From positions 96,001-160,000 of the forward strand of contig CAWDRG010000002.1 in assembly GCA_963804645.1 (NCBI GenBank): a stretch of DNA of 64,000 nt, given 5' to 3'. Of the stretch, positions 6,701-21,046 are shown piece by piece (positions within the stretch are counted from its first letter, which is position 1; every line of letters starts with the position of its first letter). The notes beneath the pieces were generated by a model. The model had not been told where the DNA came from, made no database searches, and saw only the letters and a program-made list of their open reading frames with translations. Origin of the DNA: an uncultured Bacillota bacterium. GTDB taxonomy: Bacteria > Sysuimicrobiota > Sysuimicrobiia > Sysuimicrobiales > Segetimicrobiaceae. The position numbers and the translations under genes were made by a program.

Positions 6701-9700
6701 GCGCTACCGTGCCGCCGTTCGTCACGTTCCCGCTCACCGTGCCGTGCCCGGCCAGCGTCCCGCCTGCCTGCACCGCCACGCTGCCGCCGTAGGTCACGCC
6801 GGGGATCGCGGCACTCCCCACTTCCAGCGTGCCGCTCGTCACCGTAAACGTCCCCGTGGCGCCGCTCGCGGTGCCGGTCAAGAGCAGCATCCCGGCGCCG
6901 TTGAGGGCCAGCGCCCCGCTGCCCGTCAGCGTCCCCGACAGCGTCAGCGTCGTCCCGCCGCTCGGCGTGAACGTCCCGCCCCCCGCCCCCGTCGTCACCG
7001 TCCGCGCCGACGTGAACGTCCCCGTCGTCGCCAGCGTGCCACCACTCAAGGTGACGCCATTCGCTGCGGCGCCCAGGTCGGCATCGGCTCCCACGCTCAG
7101 CGTCCCCGCCGTCAGCGTGTTCCCGCCCGTGTAAGTGTTGCTCGCGTCGGACAGGACGACGGTCCCCGCCCCGTTCAGCGTCAGCCCGCCGGCGCCGCCC
7201 AGCGCGCCCGACAGCGTCAGCGTCGTCGCGACGTTGGGGCTGAACTGCCCACCGCCCAGCGTGATGCTCCGCGCCGAACTGAACGTCGCGGTGCTCACGA
7301 GCGCGCCCCCGTTGAGGGTCACCACGTTGGCGGCGTTGCCGAGATTGTTGTCCGCGCTCACGCTCAGCGTGCCGGTCGTCACGGTGGCGCCGCCAGTGAA
7401 GATATTGCCAGTGGAAAGGACCACCGTCCCGGCCCCGTTGAGGATCAGAGAGCCCATGCCATTCACCGTATTATTGAGGGTCAGCGTCGTCCCCGCGTTC
7501 GGGCTGAATTGCCCGCCGCCCAAGGTGACATGACGGGTCGAGGTGAACGTCGCGGTCGTCACGAGCGTCCCGGTGTTCAGCGTCAGGTTGCCAATGGTGT
7601 TGCCGAGGTTGTTGTCGGCGCCGATGCTCAGCGTCGCGTTCGTGAGCGTCGTCCCGCCCGAGTAGGAATTCGACCCACTGAGCGTGACGGCACCGCCGCC
7701 GGTCACCGTCACCGTGCCCGGCCCGCTCAGCACCCCGCCGTACGTGCCGCTTCCTGCCTGATTGAAGGCGACGGCGGCGTTGTCTGCAATGGCGCCTTGC
7801 AGGCTCGTCGTCGTGCCCTGCAGCGTTCCTCCGTTCACGGTTGTCCCGCCAGAGTAAGTGTTGGCTCCGCTCAGCGTCGTTGTGCCCGCGCCCTGGAACG
7901 TCACACCGCCGCCCGTAATGACTCCTGACAGTGTGGCGTTGAATCCACCGTTGTTGATGGTGTTCAGGGACCCGCTCAACGTGATCGCCTGCGGCAACGT
8001 TCCGAACCCGGCCGCGTTGATCAACAGCGTCCCCTGGTTCAGCGTCAAACCGCCGGGTGGGCCGCCGAGATTGCTGAAACTGCTCACGCTCAGCGTGCCG
8101 TTTGAGGAAACCGTGGTCCCGCCCGTGTAGGAGTTTGTCCCGGAAAACGTAACCGTGCCAAAGCCTGTGACGGTCACGTTCCCAGGCCCGCTCAGCACCC
8201 CGCTGTATGTGCCGTTGGCCATACTGAAGATGACCGCCGCGTCGTCTGTGATGGCGCCCTGCAGGCTCGTCGTCGTTCCTTCGAGCGTCCCCGCGCTCAC
8301 CGTGGTTCCGCCCGTGTACGTGTTCGTCCCGGTGAGCGTCGTGGTGCCCATCCCGAGCAGCGTGAGGCTCCCGGACCCCACGATCGCCTCCCCAAACGCC
8401 GCGTTGAAGCCGTTGTTGTTAATCGTGCCGGCGCCCGCCAGCGTTGTCGCGGAATTCGACAACGAGAACGACGGCCCGGTGATCGACAGTGTCCCGCCGT
8501 TGAACGTCAATCCCCCGAACCCGAGATTGCTGAAACTGCCCACGCTCAGCGTCGCGTTCGTGATCGACGTCGCGCCGGCGTAGCTGTTCCCCCCGGTAAA
8601 CGTGAGCGTGCCGCCGCCCGTCACCGTCACGCTCCCAGTCCCGGAGAGCGACCCGGCGTACGTCCCGCTCCCCGCCTGGTTGAACGTCACCGCTGCGTTG
8701 TCCGTGATGTTGCCCCGCAGGCTTGTCGTCGTTCCCTGCAGCGTCCCCGCGCTGACCGTCGTGCCGTTCGAGTACGTGTTCGCCCCGCTCAGCGTCGTGG
8801 TCCCCGCTCCCTGGAACGTCACGTTTGCGATCCCCGAGATGATTCCCGCCAGGGTGGGGGTGAATCCACCGTTGTCGACGGTGTCTTGGCCTCCGCTCAG
8901 CGTGATGGATTGCGCCAGGGTTCCGAACCCCGCCGAGTTGATCAGCAGCGTCCCGGTGTTCAGCGTCAACGTATCGGACGCCGCTCCGAGGTTGCTCGGC
9001 GCCCCCACGCTGAGCGTGAGGTGCGACGTGACCGTCGTGCCGCCCGTGTACGTGCTCGTCCCCGAGAACGTGACCGTGTTCGTGCCAAGACCGGTCACCG
9101 TCACGTTCCCGGTCCCGCTCATCGCCCCGGCGTACGTGCCGCTGCCCGCCTGATTGAAAATGACGGCCGCGTTGTTCGTGATGGCACCCTGCAGGCTCGC
9201 CGTCGTCCCCTGCAGCGTCCCCGCGCTCACGGTGGTCCCGCCCGAGTAGGTGTTGGCCCCACTCAGCGTCGTGGTGCCCGTCCCAACGAGCGTCAACGCG
9301 CCGCTCCCCGAGATCACCCCCGAGAGCGTCGGCCCGCCGGCACTGCTCCCGTTGTTGATCGTCCCGCCGCTCGCCCCCAGCGTGACCGCCCGCGAAGAGC
9401 TAAATGATTGTGAGACCAGTAGCGTGCCGCCGTTGAGGGTCACCGAGTTCGCGGCGTTGCCGAGATTCGAGTCGCTCATGACGCTGAGCGTCCCACTCGT
9501 GACCGTCACGCCGCCCGTGAACGACCCGAAATTGCTGAGCACTAGCGTCCCCGCACCGCTCATCGTCAGCCCGCCGGCGCCGCTCATCGTTCCACTCAAC
9601 GTCAGCGTCGTCGCCGCGGCCGGGCTGATCGCCCCGCCGCCGAGCGCCACCGTCCGGATCGAGTTGATCGTCGCCGTCGTCACGAGCGCCCCGCCATTGA

Positions 9701-12700
9701 GCGTCACCGTGTTGACCGCGTTGCCCAGGTCGGCGTCCGCCGCCACGCTCAGGGTGCCCGCGCTGATCGTGACGTTGCCGGTGAAGCTGTTGCTGGCGTT
9801 CGTGAGGGCGAGCGTTCCCGCGCCGTTCAGTCTCACCCCCCCGGCGCCGCTCAGTACCCCCGACAGCGTCAGCGTCGTCCCGCCGTCCGGGCTGATCCCC
9901 CCACCGCTAAGGCTGATCCCTCGCGCCGAGGTAAAGGTCCCGGAACTCTCGAGCGTGCCGCCGTTGAGGGTCACGGTGTTCGCCGCGGCGCCGAGGGCGT
10001 TGTCGGCGCTGACGTCCAGGGTCCCGGCGGTGACGGTCACCCCGCCTGTAAACGTGTTGGCGCCGGACAGCGCGAGCGTGGCCCCGCTGTCGTTAAAGGT
10101 CAACCCAACGGACCCGCTCAGCACGCCCGACAGCGTCAGCGTGGTCCCGCCGCTTGGACTCAGGGTCCCACCGCCCAGCGTCACGTTCCGCGCGGAACTG
10201 AACGTTGCGGTCGTCACGAGCGCACCGCTGTTGAGCGCGACCGCGCCGGCCCCCCCGAGGTTATTGTCGGCGCCCACCTCCAGCGTGCCGGCCGTGAGCG
10301 TCGTGCCGCCCGCATACGTGTTCATCCCGCTGAGCACCAGCGTGCCGGCGCCGTTGAGGATCACCGCGCCGCCGCTCAGCACGCCCGACAGCGTCAGCGT
10401 CGTCCCGCTATTTGGACTCAGGGTGCCGCCGCCGAGGGTGACCGCGCGGGCCGACGCAAACGTCGCGGTGGTCGCGAGCGTCCCGCCGTTCAGCACCAGG
10501 GCGCCCGCGGCGTTGCCCAGGTTGTTGTCGGCGCTGACGCTGAGCGTCCCGGCCGAGACCGCGGCACCGCCGGTGTAGGTGTTCGTCCCGCTCAAGGTGA
10601 GCGTGCCGCCGCCGACGCTCACCCCGCCCCCGCCGCTGATGATCCCCGACAGCGTCAGCGCTCCGGTGTCGCCCGCATCCCCGACCGTCAGCCCCGCCGC
10701 GTCGGCGACGTTCCCCGACAGCGTGCTCGTCTGGCCGTTGCTCACGAGCAGCGTGCCACCCGTCCCCGCCGTCGTGATGCTCCCCGCCCAGGAGATCCCG
10801 CCCGTCATCGAGAGCGTCGCGCCGGTCGCCCCGCCGCCCGCCTGCGTCCCCCCTAGTGTGAGCGCCCCCGTCCCGGACCCCAGATCCCCGGCCGCGCTCA
10901 CGCTGAGCGTCCCGGCGATCACGTTCATCGTCGTCTGCTGGTTCGCCGCGTTCGTCAGCATCATCGTCCCGCTATTGGGGCTCTGGGTGTTCACGTCCAA
11001 CGTCGTCGCGGTGATCTGGGTCGACCACGGCAGCGTCGCGCCCGACGGGATCTCGCAGTCCAGAGGGTCCGTTCCCGTGCACAGCTGCCCGTAGAGGGTC
11101 ACGTCGACCTCGTTGGCCATGTAGTTCAGCGCCGGTGTCAGCGACCCGATGCTTGCTCCGCCCTCCGTGAGCGCCGCGAACGCCCCGGCCACACCCCCCG
11201 CGGCCGTGAGGATCGGGTACACCGTCCCCTGGAGGTACGTCCCCGCATCGAACGTCAGCGCGAGCGTGCCCCCGAGCGACGCCGAGCCGGTCACCACCAG
11301 CTCGCTCGACGTCGTCGGGTTCGCTTCAATGGAGAGTGTGTCGCCCGCGCCCTGCGTGTAGTTCCCATTCACCGTCAGCGTCCCAATCGTCCCGCCCGGT
11401 GCGACGGTGCCGCCGTTCGTGACGTTCCCGCTCACCGTGCCGTGGCCCGCGAGCGTCCCGGCCGCCTGCACCGCGACGTTCCCGCCGTAGGTGACTCCGG
11501 GGATCGCGGCGCTGCCGACTTCCAACGTCCCGCTTGCTACCGTAAACGTCCCCGTGGCACCGTTCGCGGTTCCGGTCAGCAGGACCATCCCGGCTCCGTT
11601 CAGCGCCAGCGCCCCGGTGCCGCTCAGCGTCCCCGAGAGCGTCAGCGTCGTCCCGCCGCTGGGCGTGAACGCGCCGCCGGCTGCGCCCGCCGTCACCGTC
11701 CGGGCTGACGTGAACGTCCCCGTCGTCGCCAGCGTCCCTCCGTTGAACGTCACGGCGTTCGCCGCGGCGCCCAGGTTGTTATCCGCGCCGACGCTCAGCG
11801 TGCCGGCCGTCAGCGTATCCCCGCCGGTGAACGTGTTCGCCCCGGACGGCGCGAGCGTCCCGGCGCCGTTCAGGGTCAGCCCGCCGCTCCCCGCCACGGC
11901 GGTCGAGAGCGTGAACGTCGTTCCCACGCCCGGGGCGAAGATGCCGCCGCCGAACAGTGTAACCGTGCGCGCGGACGTGAACGTCGCCGTCGTCGCGAGC
12001 GTCGCGCCTTCCAACGTCACGCCCCAACTGGCGTTGCCCAGATTGTTGTCGGCGCCGACGCTCAGCGTGCCCGCTTCGATCACCGTTCCACCCGTGTATG
12101 TGTTGGTCCCGGAGAGGGCGAGCGTCCCGGCGCCATTGAGGGTCAGCATGGCGCTTCCGCTTACGACGCCCGAGAGCGTGAGCGTCGTCCCGGCGTTCGG
12201 GGCGATGACCGCGCCACCCTCGGTGACGTTCCGCGACGAGCTAAACGTCGCGGTGGTCTGCAGGATGCTGAACGGGGTGCTCAACGTCACCGCGTTCGCG
12301 GCCGCGCCGAAGTTTGCGTCGGCGCTCACGCTCAATGTGCCGGCCGTCACCGTGACCCCGCCGGTGAACGTGTTGGTCCCAGACAAGGCGAGCGTTCCCT
12401 GCCCGTTCAGCGTCAGCCCCGCGCCGCCGCTCAGCACGCCCGACAGCGTGAGCTTGGTCCCGCTGTTCGGACTCAGGGTCCCGCCGCCGAGCGTCGCGCT
12501 CCGGGCCGAGCTGAACGTCGCGGTCGTCTGGAGCGTACCGCCGTTGAGCGTCACCGCGTTCGCCGCCGCCCCGAGGTTCGCGTCGGCGCTCACGCTGAGC
12601 GTGCCGGCCGTGAGCGTGTCGCCCCCGGTGAACGTATTGGTCCCCGATAGGACGAGCGTGGCCCCGCTGTCGTTGAAGGTCAGCCCGGCGGACCCGCTCA

Positions 12701-14165
12701 GCACGCCCGACAGCGTGAGCGTGGTCCCGCTGTTCGGACTCAGGGTCCCGCCGCCGAACGTCACGTTCCGGGCCGAGCTGAACGTCGCGGTCGTCACGAG
12801 CGTGCCGCCGTTGAGCGTCACCGCGTTCGCCGCCGCCCCGAGGTTCGCGTCGGCGCTCACCTGCAGCGTACCGGCCGTGAGCGTGTCGCCACCGGTGAAC
12901 GTGTTGGTCCCCGACAGCGCGAGTGTGGCCCCGCTGTCGTTGAAGGTCAGCCCAGCGGACCCGCTCAACACACCTGAGAGCGTCAGCGTCGTGCCGCTGT
13001 TCGGACTCAGGGTCCCGCCGCCGAGCGTGATGTTCCGCGCCGAGCTGAACGTCGCGGTTGTCTGGAGCGTGCCGCCGTTGAGGGTGACCGCGTTCGCCGC
13101 CGCCCCGAGGTTCGCGTCGGCGCTCACCTGCAGCATACCGGCCGTGAGCGTGTCGCCACCGGTGAACGTGTTGGTCCCCGACAGCGCGAGTGTGGCCCCG
13201 CTGTCGTTGAAGGTCAGCCCAGCGGACCCGCTCAACACACCTGAGAGCGTCAGCGTCGTGCCGCTGTTCGGACTCAGGGTCCCGCCGCCGAGCGTAACGT
13301 TCCGCGCCGAGCTGAACGTCGCGGTTGTCTGGAGCGTGCCGCCGTTCAATGTCACGGTGTTCGCGGCATTGCCGAGGTCGGCGTCGGCCCCCACGCTCAG
13401 GTTGCCGGCCGTGATTGTGAGGTTGCCGGTGAAGCTGTTGCTGGCGTCGGAGAGCAGCAGCGTGCCCGCCCCGTTCAGTGTCAGCCCGCTGCCGCCGCTG
13501 AGCAACCCCGAGAGCATCAGCGTGGCTCCGCTGTCCGGCTGGAACGCGCCGCCGCCGAGCGTGACGCTCCGCGCCGATGCGAACGTTGCGTTCGCCTCCA
13601 GTGCCCCGCCGTTGAGGGTGATGGTGTTGGCCCCGCCGCCGAGATCGGCATCGGCCCCCACGCTCAGGTTGCCGGCCGTGATCGTGACGTTGCCGGTGAA
13701 GCTGTTGCTGGCGTCGGAGAGGAGCAGCGTGCCCGCCCCGTTCAGTGTCAGCCCGCTGCCGCCGCTGAGCAACCCCGAGAGCGTCAGCGTCGTCCCGCTG
13801 TTCGGACTCAGGGTCCCGCCGCCGAGCGTCACGTTCCGCGCCGAGGTGAAGGTCGCGGTGGCTTGAAGCGTGCCGCCGTTGAGCGTGATGCCGTTCGCAC
13901 CGGCGCCGAGGTTATTGTCCGCCCCGACGCTCAACGTGCCGGCGGTGATCGTGTTGCCGCCGGTGTAGGTGTTCGAATGCGAGAGCACGAGCGTCCCGGC
14001 GCCGTTCAACAGCAGCCCGCTGGAGCTGCCCACCGTGCCCGACAGCGTGAGCGTCGTGCCCGCGTTCGGACTGATCGTGCCGCCCGCGAACGAATCCGAG
14101 CCCGAGCTGGTGAACGTTCCGGTGCTCTGGAACGTGCCTCCGGCAAGGTCCAGTCCGAATACCAC
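765..14165 (-). CDS. Autotransporter, intact 3' ORF (4,466 aa): passenger repeats, autochaperone-like domains and translocator barrel
   Basis: ORF track. Linker AETPNQIAVARVLD...ALDALTG, then a barrel at ~1600-765 with amphipathic strands ending YDAAWSSNETNQTFSAGLLIHF. Confidence 0.92.
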   Translation of the reverse strand: MVFGLDLAGGTFQSTGTFTSSGSDSFAGGTISPNAGTTLTLSGTVGSSSGLLLNGAGTLVLSHSNTYTGGNTITAGTLSVGADNNLGAGANGITLNGGTLQATATFTSARNVTLGGGTLSPNSGTTLTLSGLLSGGSGLTLNGAGTLLLSDASNSFTGNVTITAGNLSVGADADLGGGANTITLNGGALEANATFASARSVTLGGGAFQPDSGATLMLSGLLSGGSGLTLNGAGTLLLSDASNSFTGNLTITAGNLSVGADADLGNAANTVTLNGGTLQTTATFSSARNVTLGGGTLSPNSGTTLTLSGVLSGSAGLTFNDSGATLALSGTNTFTGGDTLTAGMLQVSADANLGAAANAVTLNGGTLQTTATFSSARNITLGGGTLSPNSGTTLTLSGVLSGSAGLTFNDSGATLALSGTNTFTGGDTLTAGTLQVSADANLGAAANAVTLNGGTLVTTATFSSARNVTFGGGTLSPNSGTTLTLSGVLSGSAGLTFNDSGATLVLSGTNTFTGGDTLTAGTLSVSADANLGAAANAVTLNGGTLQTTATFSSARSATLGGGTLSPNSGTKLTLSGVLSGGAGLTLNGQGTLALSGTNTFTGGVTVTAGTLSVSADANFGAAANAVTLSTPFSILQTTATFSSSRNVTEGGAVIAPNAGTTLTLSGVVSGSAMLTLNGAGTLALSGTNTYTGGTVIEAGTLSVGADNNLGNASWGVTLEGATLATTATFTSARTVTLFGGGIFAPGVGTTFTLSTAVAGSGGLTLNGAGTLAPSGANTFTGGDTLTAGTLSVGADNNLGAAANAVTFNGGTLATTGTFTSARTVTAGAAGGAFTPSGGTTLTLSGTLSGTGALALNGAGMVLLTGTANGATGTFTVASGTLEVGSAAIPGVTYGGNVAVQAAGTLAGHGTVSGNVTNGGTVAPGGTIGTLTVNGNYTQGAGDTLSIEANPTTSSELVVTGSASLGGTLALTFDAGTYLQGTVYPILTAAGGVAGAFAALTEGGASIGSLTPALNYMANEVDVTLYGQLCTGTDPLDCEIPSGATLPWSTQITATTLDVNTQSPNSGTMMLTNAANQQTTMNVIAGTLSVSAAGDLGSGTGALTLGGTQAGGGATGATLSMTGGISWAGSITTAGTGGTLLVSNGQTSTLSGNVADAAGLTVGDAGDTGALTLSGIISGGGGVSVGGGTLTLSGTNTYTGGAAVSAGTLSVSADNNLGNAAGALVLNGGTLATTATFASARAVTLGGGTLSPNSGTTLTLSGVLSGGAVILNGAGTLVLSGMNTYAGGTTLTAGTLEVGADNNLGGAGAVALNSGALVTTATFSSARNVTLGGGTLSPSGGTTLTLSGVLSGSVGLTFNDSGATLALSGANTFTGGVTVTAGTLDVSADNALGAAANTVTLNGGTLESSGTFTSARGISLSGGGISPDGGTTLTLSGVLSGAGGVRLNGAGTLALTNASNSFTGNVTISAGTLSVAADADLGNAVNTVTLNGGALVTTATINSIRTVALGGGAISPAAATTLTLSGTMSGAGGLTMSGAGTLVLSNFGSFTGGVTVTSGTLSVMSDSNLGNAANSVTLNGGTLLVSQSFSSSRAVTLGASGGTINNGSSAGGPTLSGVISGSGALTLVGTGTTTLSGANTYSGGTTVSAGTLQGTTASLQGAITNNAAVIFNQAGSGTYAGAMSGTGNVTVTGLGTNTVTFSGTSTYTGGTTVTSHLTLSVGAPSNLGAASDTLTLNTGTLLINSAGFGTLAQSITLSGGQDTVDNGGFTPTLAGIISGIANVTFQGAGTTTLSGANTYSNGTTVSAGTLQGTTTSLRGNITDNAAVTFNQAGSGTYAGSLSGTGSVTVTGGGTLTFTGGNSYAGATSITNATLSVGSFSNLGFGGLTFNGGTLSITGPSFSLSNSATTLAGAGTINNNGFNAAFGEAIVGSGSLTLLGMGTTTLTGTNTYTGGTTVSAGTLEGTTTSLQGAITDDAAVIFSMANGTYSGVLSGPGNVTVTGFGTVTFSGTNSYTGGTTVSSNGTLSVSSFSNLGGPPGGLTLNQGTLLINAAGFGTLPQAITLSGSLNTINNGGFNATLSGVITGGGVTFQGAGTTTLSGANTYSGGTTVNGGTLQGTTTSLQGAIADNAAVAFNQAGSGTYGGVLSGPGTVTVTGGGAVTLSGSNSYSGGTTLTNATLSIGADNNLGNTIGNLTLNTGTLVTTATFTSTRHVTLGGGQFSPNAGTTLTLNNTVNGMGSLILNGAGTVVLSTGNIFTGGATVTTGTLSVSADNNLGNAANVVTLNGGALVSTATFSSARSITLGGGQFSPNVATTLTLSGALGGAGGLTLNGAGTVVLSDASNTYTGGNTLTAGTLSVGADADLGAAANGVTLSGGTLATTGTFTSARTVTTGAGGGTFTPSGGTTLTLSGTLTGSGALALNGAGMLLLTGTASGATGTFTVTSGTLEVGSAAIPGVTYGGSVAVQAGGTLAGHGTVSGNVTNGGTVAPGGTIGTLTVSGNYTQGAGDTLSIEANPATSSELVISGSASLAGTLALTFDAGAYTALTQYTILTAAGGVSGTFGTLTLGGVSLGLLTPELTYLANAVNVTLEPGACTGPDPLDCEVPTGGTLPWATQITATTLDLNTQSPNSGTMVLSNAANQQTSTNVIAGTLSVSAAGNLGAALGALTLGGTQAGGGATNGTLSMTTGLVWAGSVATAGAGGTLLVSTGQTSTLSGNIANAAGLTVGDAGDVGALTLSGTISGAGGVTVGGGTVALTGTNTYQGGTTLNAGTLDVSADSNLGNAAGGVTFNGGTLLVTAGTFGSSARAIAVPGTGTLSVGSFNTVWSGVISGSGTLTVLGGATTTLTGTNTLTGTLQVSGGTLSIGTPSNLGAGSATLALNAATLLISGAGFGTAAQAITVSGGSTLNNGGNAAAFSGVISGSGGLTLAGAGTTTLSGVNTYTGGTTLTAGTLSVSADSNLGNAAGGLTLTGGTLLTTAPLTSARTIALNGGGTLNNGGNAVTFSGVISGNGGLTASGAGPTTLSGINTYTGGTTVTGGTLSVGSDSNLGNAAGGVTLNTGTLAINSAGFGASARTIALNGGGTLNNGGNAVTFSGVISGNGGLTAAGAGTTTLSGVNTYAGGTTIEGGAMVSVGADANLGAGAGGMTFNNGALATTGTFASARTVTVAAGGGTFTPNAGTTLTLSGTLNGTGVLALTGPGTVALTGNGSGATGTFTVTNGTLTVGTSATPGAVYGGSVTVQAGGTLTGYGAVGGSVTNAGTVTAGGTPGTLGTLAVTGNYTQGGGGTLGIEANPATASELAVTGAASLGGALALTFDAGAYTAGTAYTLLTAAGGVSGTFGSLTQRGANIGALTPELTYQANAVELTLIAGACSGSPVLDCEAPPNSQLLWGTQITATTLDLNTQNPNDGTLVLTANNNQQTSTNVIAGTLSVSNAGQLGSAVGALTLGGTQVGGGATTGTLFMSTGIMWAGSLTTAGTGGTLVVATGQASALSGAVNDAAGLTVGNGANTGTLTLSGVVSGAGGITVGGGTLALSGVNTYTGGTTVTGGGTVSVSTDANLGNAAGGLTLDNGTLGLAGAGFTSARGVTLNAGGGTVNTNGFAGTLSGVVGGVGALTVTGGGTLVLGGVNTYSGGTTVTGGSTLSVSNDGNLGAAGTGLTLNNGTLALAGNVVSARGVTLGAGGGAVNTNGFAGTLSGMIGGPGALTVTGGGTLTLSGANTYGGGTTVGAGATLIGTTTSVQGNIVNAGTVEFDQAGAGTYAGVLSGSGVLTLMGGGTVTLSGTNTYSGGTTVGAGTTLIGTTTSLQGNIADSGTVEFNQVGAGTYSGVLSGPGALTANGGGTLTLSGVNTYTGGTTVGAGTTLVGTTASLQGNIADNGTIEFNQAGAGTYAGVLSGPGALIIGGGTVTLSGASTYTGGTTITGGTLVVGADTTGSILGPVTVNAGGTLRGAGTIGGAVTNVAGTVMPGSSGIGTLTISGIYTQGAGGTFATEVSPTAASKLSIGGAATVAGTLTLAFDPGVYTPGQYTLLNAAGGLSGTFGTVDATGNLFVQYTLGYTADALTLTIGSVFNFSDFAETPNQIAVARVLDLASPTASGDLATVLTALTSLSTGNQVRAALDALTGVVYTNLPTVTAEDTWSAMDLVFQHLSDVQSGTSAATPALTAFAPGLSGQAGPVTWAGAEPGDPTGWLTPLTSSQTLQGTANAPGFTNQSTGLLLGYDHAAGPRLTWGYAAGTWQSSLTLANGNGTAGITTVAGAVYGGYTAGAFEARGLVGYGVNNFQTTRPINFGDLSRTATASGTGNEIMAGLEADYRLQAGALTVRPTLGIQYVHLTEPAFNESGAGSIDLGVNAVTADWLQGLAGVRLDYAQTTAAGTQITYTLHAEYTTLATEPVPQIQTLLLGAASAGPFLTTGITAAPNAVGAGARITLHASDRYDLYAGYDAAWSSNETNQTFSAGLLIHF

Positions 14166-16721
14166 GTTTGTCGCCCAGGTTTGCCGCGGCGCTGGCCTGC
14201 AGCGTGCCGCCGAAGATCCGTGTCCCGCCGTTGTAGGTGTTGGTTCCGGACAGCACCAGCGTCCCGGGGCCGTTGAGCGTGAGCGAAAACCCGCTGATCA
14301 CTCCGGACAGCGTCAGCGTCGTCCCCGCGCTCGGCACGAATGGTGCCGGCCGTGAAGGCACGCGCCGACGAGAATGTCGCCGTGGTCTTCAGCGTGCCGT
14401 TAATCGTCACCGCGCCGGCGGCGTTGCCGAGGTTAGCGTCCGAGCTCACGGACAGGGTCGTCGCGGCGCCGCTGATGTTTGTGCCTCCGGTGTAGGTGTT
14501 GCTAGTCCCGGACAGTGTCAGGGTGCTGTTGCCGGTCACGGTCAGCCCGCCGGACCCGCTGAGGACCCCGGACAGGGTGAACCCGTTGTTCCCGGTGTTG
14601 ATCGTGCCGCCGCCGAGCGTGACGTTCCGCGCCTCCGTGAAGCTCCCTCCCGTGTACCACAACGTGCCGCCGTTCAGCGTGATGGTGTTCGCGGCGTTGC
14701 CGAGCTTGTTGTCGGCGCTGAACTGCAGGGTGCCGCTCGTGATCGTGACGCCGCCGGTGAACGTATTCGTCCCGGAGAGGACCAGCGTCCCCGCGCCGTT
14801 CAGCGTCAACCCGCCGGCGCCGCTCATCACGCCCGACAGCGTCAGCGTGTCGCCGCTGTCCGGCTGGAACGCCCCGCCCCCCAGCGTCATATTCCGCGCC
14901 GAGCTGAACGTCGCTGTCGCCTCGAGCGCCCCACCGTTCAGCGTTACGATATTGGCCGCAGCGCCGAGGTTGTTGTCCGCGCTCACGCTCAGGTTGCCGG
15001 CCGCGATGGTGTTGCCGCCCGTGTAGGTGTTCGTCCCGGAGAGCAGGAGCGTCCCCGCGCCGTTCAGCGTCAACCCCCCGCTGCCGCTCAGCACGCCCGA
15101 CAGCGTCAACGTCGTCGCGCTGTCCGGGCTGAACGCCCCACCGCCGAGCGTCACCGCGCGCGTGGAGGTAAACGTCCCGGCAACTCTCCAGCGCTCCCCC
15201 GTTGAGCATCACCGCGTTGGCCGCGGCGCCGAGGTTGTTGTCCGCGCTGATGTCCAGGGTGCCGGTGGTGACAGTCACCGCACCCGTGAACGTGTTCGCG
15301 CCGGACAACGCGAGCGTCCCCGCCGCGTTGAACGTCAGCCCCACACTGCCGCTCAGGACGCCGGAGAGCGTCAACGTCGTTGCCGCGCTCGGGGTGATCG
15401 CGCCCCCTCCGAGCGTCACGTTCCGCGCCGAGGTGAACGTCCCGCTGGTGTCCAGAGCGCCACCACTTAGCGTCACCGCCCCCGACGTATTGCCCAGGTT
15501 CGCGTCGGCGCTCACCTGCAGCGTGCCGGCCATGATCGTCGTGCCACCGGTGTACGTGTTCGTCCCGGTGAGCACCACCCGGCCAGCGTTGCTCATGATC
15601 AGCGCGCCGCTCCCGCTCACGACCCCAGAGAGCGTTAGAAGACCCAGCGCGGTGGGGCCGAAGGTGCCGCCGCCCAGCGTGACCGCCCGCGCCGAGGTGA
15701 AGTTTCCGGTGGGAACCAGCGTGCCTCCGTTGAGGATCAGCGTGTTCGCGGCGTTGCCCAGGTCGTTGTCGGCGCCGAACTTCAGCGAGCCGACCGTGAC
15801 CGTGACGCTGCCGGTGAACGTATTCGTCCCGGAGAGCACCAGCGTCCCCGCGCCGTTCAGCGTCAACCCGCCGGCACCGTTCAGCACGCCCGACAGCGTC
15901 AGTGTCGTCGCGCTGTTCGGACTGAACGCGCCGCCGCCGAGCGTCATGTTCCGGGCCGACGCGAACGTCGCCGTCGTCATGAGCGTGCCGCCGTTCAGCG
16001 TGACTGTTTCGACCGTGTTGCCCAGGTTCGCGTCCGCGCTGATCTGCAGGTTCCCGGCCGTGATCGTCGTCCCGCCCGTGTACGTGTTCGTCCCGGAGAG
16101 GACCAGCGTCCCGGCGTTCAGCGTGAGCGCCCCGGCCCCGCTGATGATCCCCGACAGCGTCAACGTCCCGCTCCCGTTGCTCCCGACGTCCAGCGCCGCG
16201 GCGTTGTTGATATTGCCGGTGAACGTCCCCGACTGCCCGGCGCTCGCGCTCAGGTCCCCGCCCGTGCCCCCGGTCGTGAGGCTCCCGTTCCACGTGAACC
16301 CGGTGGTCTCGAGCAGGTTCCCGAACGCGTTGCCCCCACCCGCCTGCGAGCCGCCGATCGTCAGGGTGAGGCCGGCTCCCGAGCCGCCGAGGTTGGCGGC
16401 GCTGCTGACGTCGACCTGGCCGGCGTCGATCGTCGTGTGGGTCTGGGTGTTAGTCCCGCCGAGCGTCAGGGTCCCGTTGTTGGGGCTGGTCGTGTTGATG
16501 ACGAGATTCGTGTCGGTGATCGCGGTGTTGTACGTGAAGTTGCCGGTCGGCACTTCACAGTCCGTCGTGCCCATGCCGTTGGAGATGCAGCTCTGCGCCT
16601 CCGCGGGTACGACGAGCCCCGCGCCCGCGAGCGACACCACCAGCGTGACGACGACTGCGGAGGACCACAGCGGTCTCCAAGTTTCCCCGAGCGCTCGCCG
16701 TTCGCTACGCCACGTCGACAT
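765..16721 (-). CDS. Giant autotransporter adhesin (type Va) with PATR/beta-helix passenger, ~5,317 aa if three +1 frameshifts are corrected
   Basis: N-terminal signal peptide ending AEA|QS, dozens of G.GTL.LSG.NTY/FTGG.T..AGTL repeats (PATR), and a C-terminal beta-barrel ending in F. The reading continues across single extra bases at 15181, 14339-14340 and 14167-14169. Alternative start GTG 16781. Confidence 0.88.
2400..3020 (-). repeat. Three tandem 195-bp (65-aa) SLQGNI..GTVEFNQ.GAGTY repeats
   Basis: gaactcga at 2511, 2706 and 2901 (spacing 195). Confidence 0.8.
12370..13870 (-). repeat. Near-identical 267-bp (89-aa) tandem coding repeats within the passenger
   Basis: gtgttggtccccgacagcgcgagtgtggccccgctg recurs at 12901 and 13168 (offset 267). 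The protein unit SGVLSGSAGLTFNDSGATL...SPNSGTTLTL is 89 aa. Confidence 0.85.
14168..15180 (-). pseudogene. Autotransporter internal frameshifted segments (ORF-track frames 14006..15154 and 13912..14361)
   Basis: Same PATR repeats in shifted frames, bounded by single-base insertions. Confidence 0.8.
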
Positions 16722-16781
16722 GCAGAGGTTCACGCGAGTCCATGAGACGGCGCGCGCCGCGTGCGACAGCCATCGAGGCAC
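15181..16781 (-). CDS. Autotransporter N-terminal segment (signal peptide, Cys cap, PATR repeats)
   Basis: ORF 14502..16781 is repeat-like down to ...GGALES, then runs out of frame after an extra base at 15181. Confidence 0.82.
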
Positions 16782-16889
16782 GCGCGCGCAACCCGGGCAT
16801 GTGGCGTATCGGGATCACTGGTCCTTGTGACCGGCCGATCGGTGTCGTCTGCCATTGCGCTGCTGTCGCGGGGAGCCGGCGCAGACATG

Positions 16890-16922
16890 AAAACAGCCGG
16901 CACGTCCCGTCACGTCTCCGGC
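16890..16922 (-). terminator. Intrinsic terminator (riboswitch expression platform)
   Basis: Minus strand GCCGG-AG-ACGU-GACGGG-ACGU-G-CCGGC followed by UGUUUU, directly after the aptamer. Confidence 0.65.
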
Positions 16923-17002
16923 GTCGGCAACCCCGCTACCCCCCGTGGAGGTCCGGCAGCTTTGCGTCCCTGGGTTACCCCAGGTTTGCCATTTGTCGAC
17001 CG
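16919..17002 (-). ncRNA. c-di-GMP-I (GEMM) riboswitch
   Basis: Minus strand CGGUCG-ACAAAU-GGCAAA-CCUGGG-GUAA-CCCAGG-GACGCAAAG-CUGCCGGAC-CUCCACGGGGG-GUAGCGGGGUUGC-CGAC. It matches the Vc2-type core: GGCAAACC, GNRA loop, GGGACGCAAAG, GUAGCGGGGUU. Confidence 0.92.
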
Positions 17003-17125
17003 TACGTCCTCACTGGGACCGTCCCGTGTCTGACCCCGGCGCCCGCGTTCCCCGGGCGCACCCGACAAATCGTACAAAACACCCTACCATATAACGCGCA
17101 CCTCCGTATATGGGCCGGGGATAGG

Positions 17126-17158
17126 AAAAACGGCCCACGCACCCTCTGCGTGGGCCGT
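17126..17158 (-). terminator. Intrinsic terminator downstream of the coxL/xdh-like gene
   Basis: ACGGCCCACGCA-GAGGG-TGCGTGGGCCGT followed by TTTT on the minus strand. Confidence 0.75.
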
Positions 17159-17241
17159 GCGGATGGCCCAAAAGGACCAAGGGACTGATGCCGGGTGGGG
17201 GACACGGCGTTTCGGAGACCCGCGGCCGCGTCGACGCGGTG

Positions 17242-19545
17242 CTACGCCCTCGCGCGCCGCACCGCGGTGGCGATCCGTTCCGGCGTGAGCGGCATGTCGA
17301 GGTGCTTCACCCCGAGATGCGCGACGGCGTCCACCGCGGCGTTGACCACCGCCGGCGTCGAGCCGATCGTCGCCGCCTCCCCCACGCCCTTGGCGCCGAG
17401 CGGATTTCGCGGGGTCGGCGTCACCGAGACGCCGCGCGTCACGCGCGGCATGAAATCGGCCTTGGGGATCCCGTACTCGGCCAGGGTCCCGGTGACAAGC
17501 TGCCCGGCGTCGTCGTAGATGACGGCCTCGAGCAGCGCCTGGCTGGCGCCCTGCACGATGCCGCCGTGGACTTGACCGTCGACAAGGAGCGGATTGATCA
17601 CCCGGCCGCAGTCGTCGACGGCGACGTACCGGGTAATCCGGGGCACGTACGTCTCCGGATCGATCTCCACGACGCACACATGGGTCCCGAAGGGAAACGT
17701 CGTGCCCTGCGACTTGAACCGCGCCGTCGCCTCGAGTCCCGGATCCTGGTCCGCCGGCACGTGCTCGCCGTTGTACGCGGCGGTCGCCACTTGCGCCACG
17801 GTCACGACCCGCGCCGGGGTGCCGCGGACCGCCACCGTGGCGTCGGCCAGCACGAGATCCGCCTTCGCCGCTTCGAGCATGAGCGAGGCGACGCCGAGAA
17901 TCTGCTCGCGCACGTCGTACGCGGCGAGGTGGACCGCGGAGCCGCCGAGCGCCATGCTGCGGCTGCCGCTCGTCCCGCCGCCCTGCTGGACCAGGAGCGT
18001 ATCGCCGTGCACCACCGTAATGTCTTCGATCGGGATGCTCAGCGCGTCCGAGACAATCTGCGCGAACCCGGTCGCGTCCCCCTGGCCGTGCGGCGACGTG
18101 CCCGTCACGACCGTGGCGCTGCCGTCCTTGTTGACGCGCACGGTCCCGAGCTCCCACGGACCGAACGCGCAGATCTCGACGTAACTCGCGATGCCGATCC
18201 CGACGAGGCGCCCCTGCGCGCGCGCGGTCTGCTGCTCCGCGCGGAGCCGCGGGTACTCCGCGAGGCGCAGCGCCTCCTCGAGCGGCTTCGCGTACTCTCC
18301 ACTGTCGTAGTGCGCGCCGCTCGCTGCTTTGTACGGAAACTTCTCCGGCGCGATGAAGTTGCGCCGCCGGACCTCGGCGGGATCGACGCCGGTCGCGTCC
18401 GCCACGAGCGCCATCGCGCGCTCGAGGTAGTAGCTGGCCTCCGGCCGGCCGGCGCCCCGGTACGCGCCGGTAGGGCAGGTGGTGGTCAGCACGCCGAGGA
18501 GCTCGCAGCTGAGCGCCGGCACCTCATACGGTCCCTGGATCATGAGGGGGGTGAGGGTCGGGACGATCGGCGTGAGCCACATGTACGCGGCGCCGAGGTC
18601 GGCCAGCACCCTGGCGCGCAGGCCCCGCACGCGGCCGTCCCGGTCGGCGGCCACCTCCAGCGCGGCGACCTGCCCGCGTCCGTGCGTCATCGAGAGGAGA
18701 TTTTCCGAGCGCGTCTCGATCCACTTCACCGGCCGACCCAGCCGTCGCGCGAGCTCGGCGACCACGACGTCCTCGGGATACGTGTTCAGCTTGGCGCCGA
18801 ACCCGCCGCCCACGTCCGGCGTGATCACCCGGATCCGGCGCGCCTCAATCCCGAGCAGCTCGCTGAGCGCATCGCGGACCGAGTGCGCCTCCTGCGTGGA
18901 TGTCCAGACGGTGAGCATCCCCTGTCCCTGGCTGCCGTCGTACATCGCCACCGTCCCGCGGGGCTCCAGCGGGACCGCCGCGACGCGCTGGTTCACCATC
19001 CGCTGCGTCACGACGACCGGGGCATCCCGAAATGCGGCCTCGACGTCCCCCCGTTCCAGCAGCGTCCGGAACGCGACGTTCGTCCCGAGAGTCGGATGGG
19101 CAAAGGGGGCACCCGCCGCGGCGCGCTCGAGGTCCACTACCGCAGGCTCCGGGGCATATTCAATGTCGACGAGGTCGGCGGCATCGCGGGCCGCGGCGGG
19201 GGTCTCCGCGACCACGACCGCAACCGGCTGGCCGGCGTAGCACGCCACCGCCTCGGCGAGCAGCGGGTGCGGCGCCGCGCGCATTCCCTCGACCGGGATC
19301 ACGGGGAGCGGCTTCGGGACGTTCCGGAGGTCGGCGGCCGCCAGCGCGGCGACGACCCCGGGATGCCGTCGGGCCGCGTCGAGGCCGACCTTGCGGATCC
19401 TGGCGTGCGCGTGCGGGCTTCTGACGAACGCGGCGTGCAGCATGCCGGCGAGCGCCAGGTCGTCGACGTACGACCCTTCGCCGCGGATCAACTTGGGGTC
19501 CTCGATCCGCTTGATGCGCGCGCCGACGTGCTGGGAAAGCGCCAT
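17242..19545 (-). CDS. Xanthine dehydrogenase-family molybdopterin-binding large subunit (form II CoxL/CutL-like)
   Basis: MALSQHVGARIKRIEDPKLIRGEGSYVDD, RSPHAHA, GGGFGAK, AYRGAGRPE, HGQG, GQVHGG, NPLGAKGVGE. Start set at ATG 19545. Confidence 0.92.
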   Translation of the reverse strand: MALSQHVGARIKRIEDPKLIRGEGSYVDDLALAGMLHAAFVRSPHAHARIRKVGLDAARRHPGVVAALAAADLRNVPKPLPVIPVEGMRAAPHPLLAEAVACYAGQPVAVVVAETPAAARDAADLVDIEYAPEPAVVDLERAAAGAPFAHPTLGTNVAFRTLLERGDVEAAFRDAPVVVTQRMVNQRVAAVPLEPRGTVAMYDGSQGQGMLTVWTSTQEAHSVRDALSELLGIEARRIRVITPDVGGGFGAKLNTYPEDVVVAELARRLGRPVKWIETRSENLLSMTHGRGQVAALEVAADRDGRVRGLRARVLADLGAAYMWLTPIVPTLTPLMIQGPYEVPALSCELLGVLTTTCPTGAYRGAGRPEASYYLERAMALVADATGVDPAEVRRRNFIAPEKFPYKAASGAHYDSGEYAKPLEEALRLAEYPRLRAEQQTARAQGRLVGIGIASYVEICAFGPWELGTVRVNKDGSATVVTGTSPHGQGDATGFAQIVSDALSIPIEDITVVHGDTLLVQQGGGTSGSRSMALGGSAVHLAAYDVREQILGVASLMLEAAKADLVLADATVAVRGTPARVVTVAQVATAAYNGEHVPADQDPGLEATARFKSQGTTFPFGTHVCVVEIDPETYVPRITRYVAVDDCGRVINPLLVDGQVHGGIVQGASQALLEAVIYDDAGQLVTGTLAEYGIPKADFMPRVTRGVSVTPTPRNPLGAKGVGEAATIGSTPAVVNAAVDAVAHLGVKHLDMPLTPERIATAVRRARA

Positions 19546-19738
19546 GGTGTCACCATCCTGGGAATAAGACTGGGTGGGCTGGGAGCCTCCCGCCGCGGTG
19601 TTTCGACCGCGCGGCGGCGGGCCCCTCCCGTTCGGGGGGAACGCACCCGGCCGGCGCGAACATCCCCTCGCCGCGTCGGCCCGATCCATCGGCGTCGGTG
19701 TCCGCATCGACGACTCGTTTCGCGCTGGGTGAGAATGT

Positions 19739-21046
19739 ATGAGCGACGCTCCGATGTCGGTGGCGGATGTCATGACCCCAACGACCGTGGCGGTGCCGGC
19801 GGAGGCGACCGTGACGACCGCGGTCGACCTGATGCTGCGGGAAGACCTGCCGGTGCTCCCGGTCGTGTCCGACGGGCGGGTCGTCGGGTTGGTCACGCCG
19901 ACGCAACTCCTGCGGTGGCCGAACCAGCGCCGCGTAAACGACATCATGACGACGCCGCTCCTGTGCGCGACCCCCGAGCTGTCGCTGGTGCAGGCCCACG
20001 GCGTCGCCACGCACCAGCGCCTCGAGGTCCTGCCGGTGACCCTGGACGGGCGCCTCGTCGGTCAGATCACGCTGCTCGCGATCCTGCAGGCCCAGGGCCA
20101 GCAGACAGATCCGCTGACGGGGCTGCCGTGGGCAACGGCGCTTCGGACGTGGGCCGCGTCCGCGCTGCGCCGGGGCCACGAGATGGCGATGGTGTTTGTC
20201 GATGTCGACAACTTCGGCGTGGTCAACAAAGCGCTCGGCCACGTGGAGGGCGACAAGATTCTTCGCGCGCTCGCGTCGCTGGTCGGGGCGTCGCTGGATC
20301 CGGGGAGCGATCTCTTGTGCCGCTACGGGGGGGACGAGTTCGCGATCGCCACCACGCGGGCGCACGACGCGGCCCGGGCGCTGGCCGCGCGCATCCAGCA
20401 GGACAGCGTCGTGCCCGCGGTGATCCGCGGCGCGACGCGGTACGTCACCGTGAGCGTCGGGTTTGCGGGGGGCCGCCGCGTGCATCCGCGCGGCGATGCG
20501 CACGTGGCCGCGACCGTGGACGATCTGCTGTCGATCGCGAGCCACGCCTCCACCGCGGCGAAGGAATCGTCCGAGCGCGCGCGGCGGACCGCGTGGGCGG
20601 ATGCCGGTCGGTGGGGACCGCCCGGGGGACCGTCGGACGAGGCACGGCTGCGCCTCGTCGAGGTGATCGTGTCCAAGGATCCGCAGTGGGCGACCGCTTC
20701 GGTGCAGCTGCGCCTGGGTCCGCTCGAGGGGACCGGGACCGCCGGGGCACCCGGCGCCCACGCGCAGCCGGCGCTGCTGGTGGCGCAGGCGACCGTCGCG
20801 GCCATCCTGCAGACGGTTGGCGATCGGTTCGTCTTCGCGGTCGACGAGCTCACGGAGGTGCCGACCCGCAGCGGGGTGCTCGCGGTGGTGGTCGTGAACA
20901 ACGGGTCGGATTCCACGCCGGGGTTCGTCGGCGCGGCGCGCGCCGCGGACCCATCCGATGCGGTCGCCAAGGCGGTGCTCGACGCCCTCAACCGCCCACT
21001 CGCCAAGCCGCTTGCGGAAATTCTCCGGAGGGCGGCGCACTCGTGA
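19739..21046 (+). CDS. CBS-pair + GGDEF diguanylate cyclase with an extra C-terminal domain
   Basis: Two CBS motifs (VADVMTP..LPVV..GRVVGLVT; VNDIMT..LPV..GRLVGQIT), then DPLTGL, DVDNF..VN..GH..GD and RYGGDEF. About 130 further C-terminal residues end AVAKAVLDALNR. Confidence 0.9.
   Translation: MSDAPMSVADVMTPTTVAVPAEATVTTAVDLMLREDLPVLPVVSDGRVVGLVTPTQLLRWPNQRRVNDIMTTPLLCATPELSLVQAHGVATHQRLEVLPVTLDGRLVGQITLLAILQAQGQQTDPLTGLPWATALRTWAASALRRGHEMAMVFVDVDNFGVVNKALGHVEGDKILRALASLVGASLDPGSDLLCRYGGDEFAIATTRAHDAARALAARIQQDSVVPAVIRGATRYVTVSVGFAGGRRVHPRGDAHVAATVDDLLSIASHASTAAKESSERARRTAWADAGRWGPPGGPSDEARLRLVEVIVSKDPQWATASVQLRLGPLEGTGTAGAPGAHAQPALLVAQATVAAILQTVGDRFVFAVDELTEVPTRSGVLAVVVVNNGSDSTPGFVGAARAADPSDAVAKAVLDALNRPLAKPLAEILRRAAHS

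Follow-up and report, generated by a model that had tools for sequence, protein, structure and literature searches.

Among the described class I riboswitches for cyclic dimeric guanosine monophosphate (c-di-GMP), Bc2 of Bacillus thuringiensis BMB171 is the closest validated case to the leader analysed here, which belongs to the same class (c-di-GMP-I, also GEMM-I) and lies upstream of a giant type Va autotransporter gene. The leader and the gene are on the minus strand of a 64,000-nucleotide (nt) stretch of DNA (positions 96,001 to 160,000 of contig CAWDRG010000002.1, assembly GCA_963804645.1, from an uncultured Bacillota bacterium), called the window throughout. Bc2 is positioned upstream of cap, the gene for a collagen adhesion protein, and is a terminator-based ON switch in which the ligand favours the antiterminated fold and read-through (PMC4933901). 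The likeness lies in a class I aptamer in the 5' untranslated region of a surface adhesion gene. The target of Bc2 is a cell-wall-anchored protein of a monoderm, and its function has been examined both in vitro and in vivo (PMC4933901). Here the target is a type Va autotransporter of the outer membrane, the genome encodes Omp85 and LpxC, and the ON direction is predicted from sequence.

Two further systems differ in the way the aptamer is connected to the terminator. The pilM riboswitch of Geobacter metallireducens (GEMM-Ib, ligand 3',3'-cyclic GMP-AMP or cGAMP) is an ON switch in which aptamer and terminator compete for the 3' strand of the aptamer (PMC9262584). It carries A20 and its terminator sequesters the C92 equivalent (PMC9262584), whereas the aptamer of the window has G20 and shares only the outer strand of the closing helix P1 with its terminator; in the relatives of the autotransporter leader the overlap also spans the AA bulge and the inner G of P1. 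In Cd1 of Clostridioides difficile a class I aptamer coexists with the terminator, and an antiterminator of its own serves the ligand-free state of this OFF switch (PMC9262584). The short GUCG/CGAC P1 would permit the same coexistence here, but no antiterminator was found at this locus. Vc2 of Vibrio cholerae, the type example of RF01051, has the same aptamer fold, the same G20, A47 and C92 contacts and a GNRA-type tetraloop on the first hairpin. The window leader differs from it in host, gene context and expression platform, and has an extra U16991 in the junction before G20.

The leader is proposed to be a transcriptional ON riboswitch for the giant autotransporter, and this reading is given a probability of about 60%. 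The features on which it depends are listed below with their basis.

16923 to 17000, minus strand: c-di-GMP-I (GEMM-I) aptamer, by full-length RF01051 match and pair list.
16999 to 17007, minus strand: 5' strand of outer P1, in which CGGU (17002-16999) pairs with GCCG (16922-16919) and ACGU (17007-17004) can pair with ACGU (16915-16912), by anchored comparison, covariation and constrained folds.
16919 to 16926, minus strand: 3' strand of P1, with inner CG (16926-16925), bulge AC (16924-16923) and outer GCCG (16922-16919), the last being also the terminator 5' arm, by comparison of 33 leaders and the RF03167 structure.
16896 to 16922, minus strand: terminator-like hairpin GCCGG-AG-ACGU-GACGGG-ACGU-G-CCGGC, -13.4 kcal/mol folded alone.
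16889 to 16895, minus strand: U-tract UGUUUUC, 5 U in 7, by sequence reading.
765 to 16721, minus strand: gene of the giant autotransporter, some 5,300 codons long when the frame changes are read through, by open reading frames, Pfam and three-frame reading.

The identity of the aptamer was established with the covariance model. The cmscan search of the whole window against Rfam 15 gave a match to RF01051 (c-di-GMP-I) at 17000-16923 on the minus strand, with a score of 62.0 bits against a gathering score of 35 bits (E 9.9e-10) and with model positions 1-87 of 87 covered. By this model the element is certain to be a c-di-GMP-I riboswitch aptamer, for which ligand binding is predicted. The result is in accordance with a sequence-only reading made earlier, which had proposed a full GEMM-I core about 200 nt upstream of the start and named RF01051 as its check; the distance from the aptamer end at 16923 was found to be 202 nt to the ATG at 16721 and 142 nt to the GTG at 16781. 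The match is one of two in the window above the gathering score. The other is a thiamine pyrophosphate riboswitch (RF00059) at 63773-63663 on the minus strand, which at 54.5 bits is barely above its gathering score of 54.3.

The aptamer model contains 8 and 14 pairs, one of them non-canonical (A-G), and the first hairpin is capped by a GUAA tetraloop of the GNRA type. The letters ACAAAU-G-GCAAACC are present, and the unpaired G16990 lies directly 5' of the first hairpin. The G claimed earlier for the G20 position of Vc2 was thereby located in the matching model column; the equivalents of G20, A47 and C92 are G16990, A16963 and C16927 in the corresponding RF01051 columns, the assignment of Vc2 numbers to these columns being in part our assumption. 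The junction ACGCAAAG is intact and was invariant in all 33 aligned leaders. The closing helix P1 is present with inner CG/CG and either of two registers, GUCG/CGAC (17000-16997 with 16926-16923, read from the sequence) or CGGU/GCCG.

The downstream gene was confirmed as a type Va autotransporter, as had been claimed, by a PF03797 barrel within the last 911 residues (E 1.2e-43, profile 2-255 of 255) and by PATR repeats (PF12951) in all three gene pieces. The gene starts at ATG 16721, the longest open reading frame opens at GTG 16781, and the N-terminus (MSTWRSERR...VVPAEA/QS), read by eye, is like a signal peptide. An adhesin role may be assumed from the family. The reading frame shifts near 15185, 14335 and 14165, all in the same direction and within about 1 kb, which splits the passenger/barrel frame as assembled; after these changes 4,466 codons are open to position 765. 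The frame changes are probably assembly errors in the form of single-base indels, because a frame break of the same kind, in this case a single one, occurs in a well-conserved region (L005, about 1900-1960) of the pilT-like gene behind the C4 riboswitch of the same genome. Three internal copies of the N-terminal module (48-53% identity) were found on the minus strand at 3609-4040, 5949-6377 and 10647-11078, each following an autochaperone-like segment, and the same pattern is seen in the autotransporter genes of contig C18 of this genome and of the related genome G004. This gives the giant autotransporter the appearance of several passengers joined head to tail.

The genome of 5.3 Mb in 22 contigs has a G+C content of 68.6%, compared with 70.0% for the autotransporter gene, and this comparison gave no sign of recent transfer. 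One match each to Omp85 (PF01103, E 3.9e-31) and LpxC (E 1.2e-84), together with no match to Spo0A_C in the genome, indicates a diderm with lipopolysaccharide (LPS). The genome has 7 RF01051 matches, and the family was present in 41 of 41 genomes with up to 14 matches each, the set consisting of this genome (G000) and 40 relatives including the unpublished G034. The N-terminal module and PF03797 occurred together in only two of these 41, G000 and G004. The nearest records are L038, a public metagenome-assembled genome (MAG) labelled 'uncultured Firmicutes bacterium' with an autotransporter N-terminus 80% identical, and L068, a metagenome contig which is the orthologue of the window locus and is 79% identical over the same part; the next-best homologues in genome contigs belong to alphaproteobacterial MAGs and one Pirellulales record.

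The pairing of leader and gene recurs in this small group. The paralogues on C8 and C18 each have a GEMM-I aptamer (68.7 and 60 bits) with a hairpin and U-run upstream, the copy of G004 has the same three elements, and a GEMM-I leader also precedes the autotransporters of L038 and L068. When 18 loci with homologues of the N-terminal module (11 metagenome and 7 genome contigs) were searched with cmscan, L068 and L038 were the two that carried the aptamer; among the other 16, including all alphaproteobacterial ones, no aptamer was found in those with enough upstream sequence. At C18:1-27332 two giant autotransporter genes stand in tandem, and the riboswitch at 10940-11015 lies in the 450 nt that separate the barrel end of the first gene (about 10484) from the start of the second.

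The variant family RF03167 (c-di-GMP-I-GGC) was the best model for L068 (65.3 bits) and L038 (61.5 bits), while the window aptamer scored best with RF01051. The consensus of RF03167 reads ACGCGAA, with G at the position-47 column. The variant label was rejected for L068 and L038, since both read ACGCAAA, like the window aptamer, and the defining base is absent.

The terminator-like hairpin lies directly 3' of the aptamer and is followed by UGUUUUC (16922-16889). Its elements are GCCGG at 16922-16918, ACGU/ACGU at 16915-16912 and 16905-16902, and CCGGC at 16900-16896, which agrees with the GCCGG...CCGGC-UGUUUU terminator that had been placed right after P1. The ensemble probability of the hairpin was 0.96-0.98 in transcripts ending at 16896 or 16889, and homologous hairpins are present in the leaders of L068, C8, C18 and G004, where the U-tracts are UUCUUUC, UCUUUUUU or UUUUUG. 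By structure, the hairpin and its U-tract are predicted to form a borderline intrinsic terminator. The extension of the stem into the P1 3' strand, also suggested before, does exist (C16923-G16894, A16924-U16893, G16925.U16892), although it requires a bulged U and is energetically neutral (-15.0 vs -14.8 kcal/mol). In five leaders (L068, C18, C10_166818, C10_180033 and G010_C149) the stem of the terminator reaches past the bulge, by AA-UU pairing, as far as the inner P1 G, so that aptamer and terminator exclude one another in these five, in the manner of pilM (PMC9262584). The terminator of L068, GAAGCCGGA...UCCGGCUUC, has a folding energy of -20.0 kcal/mol.

The P1 helix was then compared across 33 non-identical GEMM-I leaders, 7 from the own genome and 26 from 18 related genomes. 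Two CG dinucleotides served as anchors, one ahead of the junction and one behind the C92 column; the flanks were re-anchored in this way by script because the MAFFT alignment put the 5' flanks out of register, the junction lengths being different. The comparison revealed a common plan for P1 in the lineage, with an inner CG/CG, a bulge of two bases and an outer helix that covaries. Behind the 3' CG, 29 of the 33 leaders have AA, and the autotransporter leader has AC (16924-16923). The longest helix of cognate flanks had a mean of 5.58 bp, compared with 3.33 +/- 0.28 bp (maximum 4.12) for 500 permutations of the flanks, a figure that is not a probability because the leaders are related sequences. 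Covariation was observed at pair -2/+4 (GC 7, CG 10, UA 3) and at pair -3/+5 (GC 8, CG 7, UA 7, UG 4, AU 2). The curated consensus structure of RF03167 has the same P1, with inner CG/CG, unpaired AA and an outer pair.

At the window locus the outer pairing is C17002-G17001-G17000-U16999 with G16919-C16920-C16921-G16922, which is the same as in G010_C149, and the L068 leader has the same CGG/CCG core. Relative to L068, the autotransporter leader carries two substitutions, A to U at 16999 and A to C at 16923, which together produce the contiguous GUCG/CGAC helix. Both substitutions are, on this comparison, derived. The sequence-only reading had taken P1 to be GUCG/CGAC; the letters are present as stated, but the contiguous helix appears as a derived form, and the P1 of the lineage is the bulged one with an outer helix.

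A crude rule was used to sort the outer 3' strand of P1 into groups. In 16 of the 33 leaders this strand is a purine run resembling a Shine-Dalgarno (SD) sequence, with a start codon behind it; in 11, the autotransporter leader included, it is the 5' start of an abutting hairpin with a U-run, and the remaining 6 fit neither group clearly. A P1 closed by ligand would mask the ribosome-binding site in the first group, giving an OFF switch, and would capture the 5' arm of the terminator in the second, giving an ON switch.

The aptamer, the hairpin, their overlap, the conservation and covariation of this overlap in the relatives and the identity of the gene are direct observations. From them we infer that the ligand binds, that transcription terminates here and in which direction the switch works, as follows. 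When no ligand is bound, the hairpin at 16922-16896 with UGUUUUC would form, and most transcripts would end some 170 nt short of the start codon. Binding of c-di-GMP would close P1, through the inner pairs C16998-G16925 and G16997-C16926, the two-base bulge and an outer helix of U16999, G17000, G17001 and C17002 with G16922, C16921, C16920 and G16919, possibly extended by ACGU/ACGU. With four of the five bases of the hairpin 5' arm taken up in the outer helix, the terminator could not form and RNA polymerase would read into the autotransporter gene. This basis differs from the one first proposed. A 4-bp GUCG/CGAC P1 abutting the hairpin gives no mutual exclusion, the two coexisting with the aptamer core at -46.3 kcal/mol in the geometry of Cd1, and the ON reading is rescued by the conserved, covarying outer P1 helix.

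The energetics were calculated by nearest-neighbour folding of the RNA alone, with and without constraints. The terminator was contained in the unconstrained minimum free energy (MFE) structure of all terminator-type leaders computed. The extended-P1 state, in which inner P1 forms and the outer strand is paired upstream, was 8.6 kcal/mol above the MFE here, 9.7 kcal/mol in L068 and 2.4-14.0 kcal/mol in the 8 relatives with a valid cut; the energies of C18 were excluded from the ranges, as the cut fell inside its terminator arm. Dissociation constants of about 1-2 nM are given for ligand binding (PMC5888326), and energy gaps of this size would be within reach of nanomolar ligand binding. The outer P1 pair probability was 0.53-0.69 before the 3' arm of the hairpin is transcribed.

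Several results weigh against the ON switch. The U-tract is short and weak, and a simple terminator scan did not return this hairpin, because its stem is interrupted by an internal loop; the upstream terminator at 17158-17130 was the only one listed. The GAA/UUC stem extension of the relatives has been lost (AA to AC, UUC to UGU), as the U-tract opens with UGU where that of L068 has UUC. The aptamer core, GUCG/CGAC and the hairpin coexist at -46.3 kcal/mol, compared with -48.1 kcal/mol for the MFE, and this state is 6.4-7.5 kcal/mol more stable than extended P1, 7.5 being the largest gap among the 10 leaders computed. If a 4-bp P1 suffices for binding, the ligand need not prevent termination. 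The canonical aptamer P1 had a probability of 0.00-0.12 in ligand-free ensemble folding, the 131-nt fold of 17010-16880 is not unusually stable (z = -1.02), and the unconstrained MFE of this segment does not recover the canonical aptamer. In addition, two contigs from RNA libraries (X7 and X10, described below) bridge the hairpin and the U-tract, and no stop is seen there. The autotransporter leader is the least clear-cut case of ON geometry among its relatives.

The alternative that survives best, though it is considered unlikely, is that aptamer and terminator do not compete here, the leader being a constitutive attenuator, a weakly responsive switch or an OFF switch like Cd1. The coexisting state just described favours this explanation, the two substitutions relative to L068 at 16999 and 16923 create exactly both extra P1 pairs, and coexistence of aptamer and terminator has been described for Cd1 (PMC9262584). 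An OFF switch would however need a ligand-free antiterminator. The search of the hairpin arms against the aptamer strands gave only options of 4-5 bp, none better than the hairpin, which retains its probability of 0.96-0.98 in unconstrained folding and occurs in every unconstrained MFE structure ending at 16896; on this ground the OFF switch was rejected as the principal interpretation. The outermost pairs G17001-C16920 and C17002-G16919 use the 5' arm of the hairpin and are available in either P1 register, and all the relatives have the ON geometry. The ON switch was retained as the likeliest reading because no antiterminator for an OFF design was found and the outer pairs use the 5' arm in either register.

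Three further features in the surroundings of the leader are as follows.

17130 to 17158, minus strand: intrinsic terminator of the upstream gene, a 12-bp stem followed by TTTTTCC, by terminator scan.
17079 to 17107, minus strand: block conserved with L068, TACGGAGGTGCGCGTTATATGGTAGGGTG, with TGG-TAGGGT as an extended -10-like motif, by pairwise alignment.
16722 to 16888, minus strand: spacer of 167 nt from the U-tract to the ATG, not conserved with relatives, by DNA search.

The upstream gene is a molybdopterin oxidoreductase by Pfam (open reading frame 17242-20010), and its strong terminator makes the riboswitch leader a separate transcription unit. The block at 17107-17079 is identical to L068 at 26 of 29 positions while its flanks diverge, and it is a candidate promoter region; a sigma-70 promoter scan gave no consensus match. 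The DNA search matched relatives only over the aptamer and platform and over the coding part. A GC-rich inverted repeat, GCGCGCGCGUGC ... GCACGCGGCGCGCGC, lies at about 16745-16790 on the minus strand, over the possible GTG start at 16781.

Among 16 public runs, 12 contained part of the stretch, and 4 of these 12 are RNA libraries from one study, whose contigs were compared over 16000-17500; such contigs show no depth, ends or strand, no meaning attaches to the regions they leave uncovered, and DNA carry-over is uncontrolled in them. Contigs without differences covered 16803-17019 (X7), 16794-16970 (X10), 16269-16497 (X9) and 17182-17412 (X12). Those of X7 and X10 end just before the inverted repeat, at 16803 and 16794. 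In one partly matching X7 contig, the loose ends match the leader of the C8 paralogue. The contigs hint weakly at transcription of the leader and at occasional read-through.

In a second alternative explanation, the hairpin is not decisive, and control would be exerted within the 167-nt spacer by Rho-dependent termination, RNA stability or translation. Consistent with it are the RNA-library contigs that run past the hairpin for about 90-100 nt before they end, the weak U-tract, the lack of an SD-like run before ATG 16721 and the GC-rich inverted repeat near the possible start codons. The ends of contigs are not RNA ends, however, and the spacer is not conserved with L068, G004, C8 and C18 whereas the hairpin is, which leaves this explanation improbable.

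The ligand specificity was also considered. In the structural literature, the two guanines of c-di-GMP are paired by G20 and C92, one each, and a bond links the 2'-hydroxyl of the G-alpha site to the A47 backbone (PMC6140456, PMC5888326). The same sources state that cGAMP aptamers carry A at position 20 and that both ligands are bound after a G20A change (PMC6140456, PMC5888326); wild-type Vc2, which has G20, discriminates against cGAMP (PMC6140456). The position-20 column holds A in five related leaders, paralogous autotransporter leaders among them: in this genome those at C18:10940-11015, C10:166818-166897, C10:167950-168029 and C10:180033-180113, and in G004 that of G004_C12 (L009).

It is very unlikely that the window aptamer senses cGAMP, or both dinucleotides, rather than c-di-GMP alone. 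The A found at the G20 position in paralogous and neighbouring leaders, which the literature gives as the mark of cGAMP or bispecific aptamers, would speak for such a ligand, but the aptamer at 17000-16923 has the G with which Vc2 discriminates against cGAMP (PMC6140456). The GGDEF domains encoded in the genome were compared at one further position. Hypr-GGDEF enzymes, which make cGAMP, are recognised by Ser or Thr at the position of PleD D344, and by this crude criterion none of the six GGDEF domains of the genome qualified (E, E, E, Q, D and one unalignable), which also argues against cGAMP. One of these six belongs to a CBS-CBS-GGDEF protein of 435 residues at 19739-21046 on the plus strand (GGDEF E 1.2e-21), located 2.7 kb from the riboswitch on the opposite strand; the GGDEF motif is kept and the usual N-R-R stretch of the guanine-binding region is missing.

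The A20 leaders lead to a broader scenario, which is put forward as a speculation with little expectation that all its parts hold. The lineage would have gained its giant autotransporters from another source, each copy then coming under a GEMM-I ON switch of the lineage itself. Their leaders would since have split into G20 copies (the window copy, C8 and L068) and A20 copies (C18, G004 and L038), such that paralogues would be switched on by different cyclic dinucleotides, c-di-GMP on one side and 3',3'-cGAMP or either ligand on the other. One modular outer-P1 strand would serve across the lineage as anti-SD or as anti-terminator.

A pseudogene in decay, with the leader as a relic of no present function, could be suggested by three frame changes within about 1 kb and a platform without the GAA/UUC extension, but is hardly credible in view of the same kind of frame break in the conserved pilT-like gene on another contig, the 4,466 remaining open codons, the 62-bit aptamer with all contact bases intact and the RNA-library contigs over the leader and part of the coding region.

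Other leaders of the same family were noted in the course of the comparison. SD-type GEMM-I leaders precede small secreted proteins at L002 1493-2121 (G000 C10:167950 onward) and at many related loci; one such protein was confirmed as a CAP/SCP family member (PF00188, E 7.2e-17). Several of these riboswitch and secreted-protein units follow one another in tandem at intervals of about 1 kb, and in the relatives they are often found at the ends of contigs. A terminator-type GEMM-I leader stands before a GAF-GGDEF diguanylate cyclase gene (L011 1485-2642, G001 C76), and if this switch is of the ON type, it would form a positive feedback loop on c-di-GMP.

The literature search found no description of a c-di-GMP-I riboswitch paired with an autotransporter, as judged by titles, the openings of abstracts and passages of PMC6096418, and within these sources the pairing is apparently uncharacterised, as the sequence-only reading had supposed. 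The riboswitch class is well known, and the gene context is new in detail and expected in kind. The finding is expected rather than surprising because Bc2 had already established c-di-GMP-I ON control of adhesin genes by antitermination. What it offers is a proposed control point for a giant surface protein of an uncultured LPS-bearing lineage. The gene family is rare in this lineage and its nearest outside homologues are alphaproteobacterial, yet each copy has a c-di-GMP leader of the lineage type. The more useful result is the lineage-wide comparison, in which one P1 design, with inner CG/CG, an AA bulge and a variable outer helix, appears to serve opposite outputs, as it would hide the ribosome-binding site (OFF) in some leaders and the terminator arm (ON) in others.

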